Made by a program: the position numbers
Source of the DNA: a virus
Lineage: Duplodnaviria > Heunggongvirae > Uroviricota > Caudoviricetes
Reading direction: 5' to 3' (one strand)
Length of the DNA stretch: 9,075 nt
Virus record (IMG/VR): IMGVR_UViG_2703718801_000002
Coordinates: 1-9,075 of that record
Shown: in pieces, positions 6,001-9,000 of the stretch
How positions within the stretch are numbered: the first letter of the stretch is position 1
Layout of the letters: each line of letters begins with the position of its first letter

Positions 6001-9000
6001 TCGTCGGCCCGTCAGGCTCATAAATATCTATATCCCGCGTGTGATTAATTAAAACGCCCCTCGCCCTCCCGATGATATACGAGAACTCATAGCCGTAGTC
6101 GTGGCATATGCCGGAATAGCCAGACTGAATCAGTTTTAATGCGGGATACAACTCACGGAACAATGCCTGTGAGCGGTTGGCATAATCCCACAGCCAAACA
6201 AGGCTGTCTGTTTCTTTTGCGGAAAGCCCGTTGGGCTTCTTCTCTTGTTTGCCAGTATTTTTCTTGCACTGGCTGAAATAGCAGTCTTCCAGTTTTTCGA
6301 ACACTTCCCACGCCTGATCGGTTTCGAGCATTTTGGCGTGACGGGCAGCGCCGCGTTCAGTCCAGAGGATGAGGGAGCGGGTTTTGGGGGAAATTTGCAG
6401 GTAACTAAAAGTTACTCGCAAATTTTTCAGATCATCGCCAACGATTTTGAAATAATGCTTCCCTTCCAGAAAACGAGTTTGATTACGTGAATGATTCATT
6501 TTTATGTTGGCAACATCCGTTCCATAAAGATGCGCCAATAGCTCGGTGGTTATGACAGGGATCTGGTTGTGGGTAATCGGGGAAAGAGTTTCAACTGCGA
6601 TTTTGGTGGCCATAAGATGATCCTTTTTCTTTGTGAATCATCACCACCTGCGACGCCAATCGCTTGGTGGTGAACTGTGCAGGGTTGGCGTAACCGGGAA
6701 AAAGGAACCGGCGCGGATTGCTCCGCCCCCACACAGCCCACCATTGAGATGTGACTGTGCAAACGACAATAAAAAAGACGCTGGCGCGTCTGTTGTCGCC
6801 TTTTTCATCCGGGACGCCAATCCCGACGCCAGATTTTGCTGGCGTGTGAGGAATATAGCCCCGGATAAATCATCGCGTCAATCCCCTTGTATTCCTCGCA
6901 CGATGTCTTAGCCACCGGATATCCCACAGGTGAGCCGTGTAATTGAAGGTTTTTACGTCAGATTCTTTTGGGATTGGCTTGCGTTTATTTCTGGAGCGTT
7001 TCGTTGGAAGGTATTTGCAGTTTTCGCAGATGATGTCGGTGATACTTCGTCGCTGTCGCCTCATGCCGCCCTCCTGACGCCCTGCCCGATCGCCATCAAT
7101 GCCGCTTTGGATACGGTAGTAAACATCCGTCGAGGACTGATGAACGGTCGCCAAATCAGCAGCATGGAGCCTTTACTGTTTCCCTTCTTCTCCAGCCCCG
7201 TCGATGGTTCGATAAAATTAATCCGTCCATCAGTGATAATGCGAACTTCGTCAACACTCTCCAGAGCCTTGCTGAACCATCCGACTGACATATCCTCTGG
7301 CACAAGCATCACTACCGTCTGTCGCTGTTGTATGCACTGCTCAGCGGCTTTTTCCACCCACGGCCTGATATTGCTGTACGGTGGGTTATTCCAGATTGCA
7401 CCGTGGCTTACCCACTCAGAATTGAGCGCGTCGTCGGCCTCAGTTAGCCAGTGAGCACACAGAGCATTTTTGTCGCTCGCTGCCGAATCCAGCCAGAATC
7501 CAAACTCAATATCCAGTGCATCAAAAAGCCAAAGCGGCGTTTGCCAGCAGTCCTTGTTGTGTGCTGGCGTATTTGATTTGATAGTCATGCAGCCCGATCT
7601 CCCCATCGCGCTTTCATTTTTTCATTTGCAAATCGCCAGAATCTTCCTTTGTGATATGAGCTTTCGCCATTACAGCAACGACTAATTGACGAACTATCAA
7701 ATCCTTCTCTGACAGCATCCATAGCTGCTTCATAATAAACCTCCTCCCCAGTTTTCATGTCAGTAGAAATAACAGCTTTACTGGCAGGATGGTCACCACT
7801 AAATTTACCTAGCGATATAGGTATTCTTCCATTTTGTTTATATCCGTGTTTTGAGTTTTCAGAATGTGATACCCATTCAAGGTTATCAGCCCTATTGTCA
7901 TCTCTTCGCCCATTTTTGTGATTAACTACCAAGCCATCACAGAACCCTGTACAGAATGCTTTCGCAACTATCCTGTGGGCGCTGTATTTCTTACCGTATA
8001 CCTTTATTTGAAGATATCCTGTCGACTTGCACTTGAATGGTTTTACACTAGTGCCATTAATTATTTTCTTATATGGCCTCTGTCTGGTTGATGTTACTGT
8101 AACTTCCCTCGTAATAGACCTGAAATTTCCTTTATTGCTAACCTGATAAAATGGAATCCCTTCGATATCTACCCAAACCTCAATCATAATTCCTCCATTC
8201 GCTAAGATGAATTGAGTTCATGGCACAATATGCTTCTATGTAGTCCATTATTTCGGATATTTTTTTTACAGATAGAGTCGCCGTACTCTCTCTGATGTTT
8301 ATTAGCTCACCTTCTAACCCTGATATAATCTCAGGGTGCTGGTTGGTTGCAATCTGCCAACCAGAAACGAATAACCCCTTCCAAAACTCAATATTTCTTG
8401 CTTTTCCGTGATATGTAGCCTTCTTACTTATTTCAGATAGCATCGCGTGAAGGCGTGCATTTTGCCGAATGCTGCGGTTGCGTTCCTGAATGGTTACTAC
8501 GATTGGTTTGGTTGGGTCTGGAAGAATTTGCTGGATAGCTTGAATGGCGTTCTGCTGATGGATGGGGCTTCTTAGTTCAAATGTTAGTTTCCTCATCACC
8601 CTTAATCCTCTCGAAGTTCTTCTCGAAGTTTTTGGTGTCGAACACTGACCACCGACCATTATGAATGGCGTATGCACATGTCTTGTTTTCGTCCTGATAA
8701 ACCACCCTTACCTTGCGATAAAACCGTGGCTTAATCTCTCTGAATATTTGCTCGCTCATGCTCACTCCTTCACTTTAAATCCAGACTCCGGATAATTCTG
8801 TTGCGCTGAAACTCATTATTGAGTCTGAACAACCGTCGAAGAACACGGTCACGCGGATAGCGCCGTGCGGCAGGTGAGTGCTCATACAACTCATCAAGCG
8901 GCAAACTGGACGATGAACGATACCGATACCAACGCACCAACTCTTCACGAAAATTAGCCCTGACAAGCTCAGCTATCGTACTCATTTCTTAAAACCTCCT

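Follow-up and report, generated by a model that had tools for sequence, protein, structure and literature searches.

How does an endonuclease gene come to end in the last codons of the gene that precedes it? This question is raised by a 9,075-nucleotide stretch of DNA from a virus of the Caudoviricetes (IMG/VR record IMGVR_UViG_2703718801_000002, positions 1 to 9,075; henceforth termed the window), in which a gene for an HNH endonuclease lies between ninB, coding for an orf-family recombination mediator, and dam, coding for a phage-type methyltransferase, all three on the minus strand. Sequence comparison identifies the window as the nin region of a Shiga toxin (Stx)-converting lambdoid phage: over 2 kb, its identity to phage 86, P27, TL-2011a, and many Stx2a phages amounts to 99.5-99.9%. 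GenBank records of matching phages already carry the labels ‘NinB’, ‘HNH endonuclease’, and ‘DNA methyltransferase’ at this place. A first-pass annotation had proposed that a free-standing homing endonuclease gene was caught in the act of inserting near the 3' end of ninB, giving NinB a new short tail and fusing the displaced codons to the endonuclease. The analysis reported here bears out the fusion and points to a different history, in which the endonuclease gene probably travels together with a linked ninB allele.

The HNH protein ends ...FANEKMKARWGDRAA, and lambda NinB, translated from J02459, ends ...LALEWKARWGDRAA, in accordance with the first-pass annotation. At the nucleotide level, window positions 7585-7614 match the 3' end of lambda ninB at 27/30 positions and the ninB 3' ends of HNH-free HK140 and of an HNH-free Escherichia coli ESBL15 prophage at 30/30. 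The identity to HK140 and ESBL15 runs on from the tail into dam (98.6% over 7615 to 6906); across the dam region, flank identity is 98.6% to HK140 and 97.8% to an Stx1 phage. When the window tail was compared with a panel of NinB C-termini, its score was reached by 0/200 shuffles. The HNH tail is genuine ninB sequence and no chance match. The displaced piece that has been kept comprises nine codons, fewer than the roughly 14 that the annotation had counted from the insertion point to the end of ninB. The HNH gene lacks a stop codon of its own; its reading frame continues across the inherited ninB tail and closes at the former ninB stop, and thereby the ATGA overlap with the methyltransferase gene, correctly noted before, and the ribosome-binding-site-like GGGGAGA for dam are preserved. 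By eye, the junctions show a degenerate direct repeat (GCGAATGGAGGAA and GCAAATGAAAAAA), which we set aside as too weak for a target-site duplication.

We also considered whether KARWGDRAA might be native to this HNH family, a possibility that the annotation itself had raised, and rejected it on the grounds that relatives end differently and that the alignment to I-HmuI stops before the tail. The ends of close relatives read ...WRFADERMAA (Salmonella phage SEN22, 78% amino acid identity), ...WRFANEKAAA, or ...WRFGDKGKVAA; an A-x-E-[KR]-x pattern is common to relatives at the linker position, and the sequences diverge after it. HNH residues 55-186 align to residues 36-170 of the 174 residues of I-HmuI (PDB 1U3E, E=3.7e-14), an alignment that takes in the H-N-N motif and ends at the C-terminal HKGxxW/FRF/Y element, 4 residues before the I-HmuI end. 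Because the alignment stops at residue 186, residues 187-200 lie outside the fold. Pfam finds NUMOD4 (1.4e-13) and HNH_3 (2.4e-11), both above cut-off, and an I-HmuI NUMOD-like match (9e-4) that reaches only 19.2 bits where the cut-off is 27. Residues H90, D97, N102, and N111 are invariant in an alignment of 43 members, and comparison with SEN22 gives 0.13 nonsynonymous (pN) and 0.81 synonymous (pS) differences per site, i.e., saturated synonymous sites. Judged by these matches, the gene is built like those of free-standing homing endonucleases, in agreement with the first-pass annotation; endonuclease activity, its target, and homing are inferred.

The ninB gene upstream of the HNH gene has a different origin from the tail. 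The annotation's statement that NinB tracks lambda NinB holds for the first ~42 residues, to which the resemblance is confined, and fails beyond them, overall amino acid identity being 47% to lambda NinB, 96% to phage APC_JM3.2, and 86% to SEN22. In blastn comparisons with ninB of HK140 and E. coli ESBL15, the stretch from 8599 to 8471 is 85% identical and DNA similarity is undetectable past 8471; megablast of the region against phages likewise ends at query position 605 (window 8471). Codons 43-138 are of a separate clade, whose core reads ...QNARLHAML...FWKGLFVSGWQIAT...PGLEGEFINIREST. The protein nevertheless matches Pfam NinB (PF05772) with E=2.5e-40 over model positions 2-129 of 131, a full-length domain, and dN/dS against SEN22 is 0.065; in view of this purifying selection the gene is probably functional, and the suggestion that the insertion may have affected NinB function finds little in its favor. 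One feature is lacking: the C-terminal helix alpha5 of lambda Orf has no equivalent, with only WRNYD following ...HLSE and ARLALEW missing. In lambda Orf, this helix (R132, W137, R140, W141) contributes to DNA binding, and the point mutants R132A, W137A, R140A, and W141F reduce binding only modestly (PMC4118853). The window ninB is chimeric, not broken.

The short end of this NinB is not a random product of an insertion. Its last codons, ...EWRNYD (TGG AGG AAT TAT GAT TGA), supply the HNH ribosome-binding site (RBS) and ATG in the ninB frame, as the annotation had read from the sequence: the final codons of ninB contain the HNH ATG (8187-8185), which overlaps the ninB stop (8182-8180) as ATGATTGA. 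The GenBank record of phage P27 annotates an RBS at the GGAGGA position, and the junction TGGAGGnnTTATGA recurs in SEN22 and in a locus with an unrelated endonuclease gene (L033). Related NinBs that precede other endonuclease genes end ...DDWRGYDN (L033), ...STWRVYNG (L038), and ...SDGGRYE (L034). We therefore rejected the notion of a new tail created by the insertion, since NinBs before other HNH types keep W-R-x-Y-D/N, a pattern explained by the double role of these codons, which also form the RBS and ATG of the next gene. Clade members without an HNH gene have other endings: ...RLSAPEDAWG followed by ninG (L037 and L088), a different 15-residue tail after ...RLT followed by ninG (P0058), and ...DEDLSIKKWSARWGA (...KKWSARWGA) followed by ybcO (P0021). 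The short tail therefore accompanies an overlapping downstream gene.

A clean indel of about 600 bp between HNH-carrying and HNH-free alleles had been proposed as the check on a simple insertion. We looked for it in 50,697 phage records and 5,426 complete E. coli genomes with megablast and blastn, in IMG/VR with two protein-guided scans, and in metagenome contigs with an exact-word scan for the window-type ninB 3' end. An empty site differing only by the HNH gene was found in none of the phages, E. coli genomes, IMG/VR records, or metagenome contigs, and a scan of GTDB genomes with an alignment of the NinB clade returned 9 distant loci only, adding little. With HNH-free alleles, the window shares homology only over 8599-8471 and from 7615 downward, so that 856 bp (8470-7615, comprising ninB codons 43-138 and the HNH gene) stand in for ~285 bp of lambda-type ninB. 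It follows that the upstream ninB and the 30-nucleotide tail derive from different ninB alleles. Moreover, lambda ninB codons ~131-137 (ARLALEW) have no counterpart in the window, so the event was not a simple insertion.

The divergent ninB segment and the HNH gene are strictly linked in the close copies found. All 65 phage records (65/65) with the segment at 8180-8470 are of the HNH-carrying kind, with full coverage and, in 63 of them, at least 99% identity; among the 60 of these 65 records listed, every annotated one has an HNH or endonuclease gene beside ninB, many being unannotated. The segment and the HNH gene occur together in 77 E. coli genomes, and the metagenome contigs with a window-type ninB 3' end have the HNH gene in 4/4 cases. 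Presence of the pair is patchy: the HNH gene is found in 77/1558 E. coli genomes that match a dam/ninB-tail query and in ~65/385 phage records that match the region, and HNH-free phages have flanks 97-99% identical to those of the window. Copies of the stretch 8599/8482-7585 that are 97-98% identical occur elsewhere: the P22-like phage APC_JM3.2 has one before ninC, and IMG/VR and metagenome contigs (L083, L187, L190) have one before ninE, with varying ninB N-terminal segments among the carriers. In SEN22, a diverged ninB-HNH pair stands upstream of ninD, and of a P22-type ninB tail only GCCGCATGA is kept. The junction being common to phages with three different downstream genes, and synonymous sites being saturated relative to SEN22, the insertion was not caught in the act. 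These comparisons indicate that the ninB-HNH linkage is old and that the endonuclease gene is maintained by selection.

Some copies of the cassette have been altered further. In the IMG/VR record 2751185961_000005 (L083, 1433-2603), a window-like ninB 5' fragment extends to window position 8501 and is followed by ~595 bp of foreign sequence from which another ninB N-terminus (MKCVKYHLTNES...) is encoded, after which the cassette resumes at window 8482; this leftover scrap of ninB points to more shuffling inside the gene. The HNH open reading frame (ORF) of a metagenome contig (L188, ERZ894248 NODE-3728) stops short after 37 codons, and the sequence after the break (...ELRLPDHRFRWKHNK) resembles the odd C-terminus of another protein (P0007); the cassette may have been interrupted here by an insertion element. 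E. coli E89 (NZ_CP121157.1, 3290225-3290958; H260) has a different ‘HNH endonuclease signature motif containing protein’ annotated in the ninB-dam stretch of another prophage, the match falling in two pieces, and this may be another endonuclease insertion near the ninB-dam boundary.

A search of a collection of 5.8 billion proteins gave 168 relatives of the HNH protein at E<=1e-15. Their conserved core ends ...ISRCCxGxxxxHKGxxWRFA and is followed by tails of 1 to 49 residues. Among the 68 tails of at least 8 residues, 18 beat all 30 shuffles against the panel of NinB C-termini, and those that are clearly NinB-like start at different NinB positions: FGTEHGVKWADEAKAA (P0210), AHAFGTQRGVEWS... 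(P0190), GDRHGVRWSDEARA (P0222), SDASRLEIEWATRWGKS (P0135), and KARWGDRAA (window type). Where the gene context of such proteins was looked up, ninB directly precedes the HNH gene: in L100, the upstream NinB retains its own ...AFGAEHDVKWGEAT end, so that the 3' end is effectively duplicated, and in L098 and L101, a divergent-clade NinB is followed by an HNH protein with a lambda-type tail. One IMG/VR locus, L111, has no ninB upstream, yet its HNH protein ends NinB-like, ...ERGVVWSDRARQEIVDDWESA. The same position can be occupied by other endonucleases, for instance an unrelated HNH_3+AP2 protein that ends ...DAKNQAIEWASRFGDKQRAAA (DAKNQAIEWASRFGD..AA; 0/200 shuffles) in L033 and another HNH_3 protein without a ninB tail in L038. 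A distant HNH relative (35% identity) in L121 (1828-2905) is located immediately upstream of ninB (NinB HMM 3.5e-43), not downstream. The window itself has a second, unrelated HNH gene just downstream of the Q antiterminator gene (3412-3930) and upstream of transfer RNA (tRNA) genes, whose domain type is that of the AP2-HNH protein found after ninB in L033.

Building on the observed anatomy, homologies, breakpoints, linkage, distribution, and selection, we consider it probable that the HNH gene belongs to a ninB-associated lineage of free-standing homing endonucleases, one that moves together with the ninB allele linked to it and whose reading frame runs on into the remains of a ninB tail. The stretch 8482-7585 would then be a mobile cassette composed of the divergent 3' two-thirds of ninB, the I-HmuI-like NUMOD4/HNH gene, and the 30-nucleotide leftover of the displaced ninB, and translational coupling at both ends would build it into the nin operon. 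The endonuclease would nick or cut HNH-less ninB alleles near their 3' end, and repair from an HNH-carrying phage would copy the HNH gene along with the adjacent, presumably cleavage-resistant ninB allele (co-conversion), with crossovers that fall, on the left, within the conserved 5' segment of ninB and, on the right, within its tail or at the gene boundary. Such repair would explain both the strict linkage of ninB allele and HNH gene and the breakpoints in the ninB 5' segment and tail. The junction of the E. coli type would have arisen once, long ago, with later homologous exchange between nin regions. More tentatively, and with less confidence than an even chance would warrant, the scheme could be extended to the whole I-HmuI-like HNH subfamily, which in phages of diverse Proteobacteria might be specialized on the 3' end of ninB/orf. 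Each invasion would bring a resistant ninB 3' part and leave the resident tail fused in frame to the endonuclease, with stop/start coupling in the operon kept unbroken throughout, the variable tails would record independent invasions, and the FWKGLFVSGW-type NinB clade would have spread by hitch-hiking, or else the nuclease would have been co-opted to feed NinB-mediated recombination.

Several observations weigh against this interpretation. No precise empty-site allele was found in the collections searched, so the insertion itself is deduced from its remnants, and most of the short tails of HNH relatives (...xAA) are not assignable to ninB. The association with ninB depends on an identity threshold that was read off the results, not preset: in IMG/VR relatives with at least 39% identity, NinB ends at the HNH start in 10/14 cases, and in those below 39% identity 0/66 are linked to ninB in the same way. 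Nor is ninB the sole neighbor, since in three of the remaining four loci (L105, L107, L108; 63-65% identity) the HNH gene follows a gene for a DUF1367 protein and precedes ninE, its product ending ...ADERMAA or ...ANEKAAA; DUF1367 is the YbcN-type distant Orf family. On the HNH side, the window type and SEN22 share one breakpoint (...E-K/R-M), and the ninB side differs, so that later in-frame deletion or recombination explains the two tails as easily as independent invasions do, and here we lean towards later change. Purifying selection on the HNH gene and its tight, ancient linkage to one NinB clade would be equally expected of a gene with a domesticated or cooperative role. Finally, a literature search gave no reports of cleavage, nicking, or homing for the window HNH protein or its close relatives.

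Other histories can be set against the homing cassette. In the one put forward in the first-pass annotation, the HNH gene alone was recently inserted into a resident ninB whose halves now flank it. It draws on the facts that the tail is real ninB sequence and that the last NinB codons encode the HNH RBS and ATG, and the long lambda-like tail of HNH-free P0021 makes a long-tailed ancestor of the clade conceivable. However, the clean indel is absent from all collections searched; ninB codons 43-138 are dissimilar at the DNA level to the very allele with which the tail agrees at 30/30 positions; the ARLALEW codons are missing; and differently flanked phages have the junction in common, with a ninB-HNH pair that is saturated at synonymous sites relative to SEN22. 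A simple recent insertion is largely refuted, and we regard it as very improbable.

Ordinary lambdoid mosaicism would make ninB and the HNH gene an exchanged module, the HNH gene a passenger (moron) that is inactive or irrelevant to its spread, and the tail the scar of one illegitimate join. The nin region is indeed highly mosaic, with a phage-21-like third ninB type that replaces the whole gene between the same flanks (breakpoint GGGCTGCATGA), the cassette adjoins four different downstream genes, and the extra ninB 5' fragment in L083 fits the same picture; mosaicism alone nevertheless seems unlikely to us, as it leaves unexplained three unrelated HNH types at the same site, an HNH subfamily that tracks ninB across diverse Proteobacterial phages with repeated in-frame capture of tails, and catalytic residues kept under strong purifying selection. 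The enzyme might instead be a partner of NinB/Orf, a nuclease acting in recombination or repair, adjacency serving co-expression and not selfish homing. Orf-HNH (DUF968) fusions of Gram-positive phages have been interpreted in this way (PMC2034487, PMC4118853), and a partnership would agree with a tight and ancient linkage, purifying selection on both genes, their translational coupling, and the relatives found after a DUF1367 gene. Against it stand an architecture like that of site-specific homing and nicking enzymes such as I-HmuI and not like the small zinc-finger HNH of DUF968, the lack of the HNH gene in most phages with the same nin operon, the interchangeability of HNH families at the site, and leftover ninB tails that indicate insertion or replacement events instead of a designed operon. 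We therefore give a functional partnership a decidedly low probability.

The features of the locus and of the remaining window are collected in Table 1. The C4/isrK matches lie upstream of an ORF6N/P22_AR_C antirepressor-like gene (5939-6613), so that the nin region includes a C4-ant immunity module of the P1/P7 type. ORF calling gave no convincing long ORF in window positions 1-1900.

Table 1. Coordinates of the ninB-HNH-dam locus and of other features in the window.
Feature	Position	Strand	Basis
ninB, chimeric (orf-family recombination mediator), 138 residues, ends ...HLSEWRNYD, then stop	8596..8180	minus	Pfam NinB
ninB 5' segment, lambda/P22-type, codons 1-42 and start region	8599..8471	minus	blastn
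ninB segment of divergent clade, codons 43-138	8470..8180	minus	linkage to HNH, clade core
GGAGGA RBS of HNH gene, within ninB codons W-R-N	8196-8191	minus	sequence; P27 annotation
HNH ORF, 200 residues	8187..7585	minus	ORF call, Pfam
HNH core, residues 1-186: NUMOD4, HNH_3, and I-HmuI-like NUMOD region	8187..7630	minus	Pfam, 1U3E alignment
Linker ANEKM between HNH core and ninB remnant	7629..7615	minus	alignment of relatives
Lambda-type ninB 3' remnant (KARWGDRAA and TGA), in-frame HNH C-terminus; includes RBS-like GGGGAGA of dam	7614..7585	minus	nucleotide identity
ATGA overlap of HNH stop and dam start	7585-7588	minus	sequence; P27 coding sequences 1189-1791 and 1788-2315
Dam N6-adenine methyltransferase, phage-type; flank common to HNH-free phages	7588..7061	minus	Pfam Dam 1e-64
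C4 antisense RNA, a1/b1 target, and isrK matches	6663-6858	minus	Rfam, 74, 50, and 79 bits, respectively
Second, unrelated HNH gene, 170 residues	2705-3217	minus	HNH_3 2.1e-18, AP2 1.6e-08
tRNA cluster: tRNA-Gly(tcc), tRNA-Asn(gtt); third tRNA at 2498-2570	2417-2650	minus	ARAGORN; Rfam (third tRNA)
STnc100 small RNA	1720-1889	minus	Rfam, 99.8 bits

The proposed cassette accounts for the short, odd NinB and the 200-residue HNH protein with a lambda NinB C-terminus that occur in some Stx and P22-like phages. For annotation, the HNH tail is best treated as a scar and not as a domain. The locus suggests that selfish endonucleases help to drive allele replacement and mosaicism in the nin regions of lambdoid phages, including Shiga toxin phages, and offers an example of a mobile gene that leaves translational coupling intact by borrowing the stop codon of the host gene and the RBS of the next. 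It also yields a predicted target, the 3' region of lambda-type ninB, for an uncharacterized endonuclease family.

This is not a new kind of system, as homing endonuclease genes that disrupt phage genes or fuse to them are already known. Our literature search found no account of NUMOD4-HNH genes capped by ninB tails, its coverage being incomplete and the result weak evidence of novelty. The window HNH protein has the same domain order as I-HmuI, the intron-encoded HNH nicking homing endonuclease of Bacillus phage SPO1, and as free-standing phage NUMOD4/HNH_3 enzymes. Unlike I-HmuI, its gene is not intron-encoded and lies, in a temperate lambdoid phage, between two nin genes whose translation is coupled; the protein bears a 14-residue extension, nine residues of which come from ninB. 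Free-standing homing endonuclease genes of T4-like phages (seg and mob, or mobE in nrdA of Aeromonas phage Aeh1) co-convert flanking markers or split genes. As with these, the endonuclease gene described here sits at or inside a conserved phage gene, is patchily distributed, and has a co-inherited neighboring allele. Unlike nrdA in Aeh1, ninB has not been divided into two working parts: the copy upstream is another allele, sufficient in itself, and of the displaced ninB only a scrap of nine codons is left, fused to the HNH gene.

Closer to the nin region, the association of an Orf-family mediator with an HNH nuclease recalls the Orf-HNH fusions of Gram-positive phages (DUF968/PF06147; PMC2034487, PMC4118853). 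Those are single polypeptides with a C-terminal zinc-finger HNH, in contrast to the window, where the two proteins have separate ORFs that differ in frame and are parted by a TGA; Pfam gives no PF06147 match for either NinB or the HNH protein. In the P22-like phage epsilon34, gene 31 joins the N-terminus of eaE in frame to a putative HNH homing endonuclease (PMC2629481), so that here too, in a lambdoid/P22-like phage, part of a resident gene has become joined in frame to a homing-type HNH ORF. Unlike the epsilon34 case, where the fragment is N-terminal and belongs to the early-left operon, the fragment in the window is C-terminal, derives from ninB, and recurs across the HNH subfamily.

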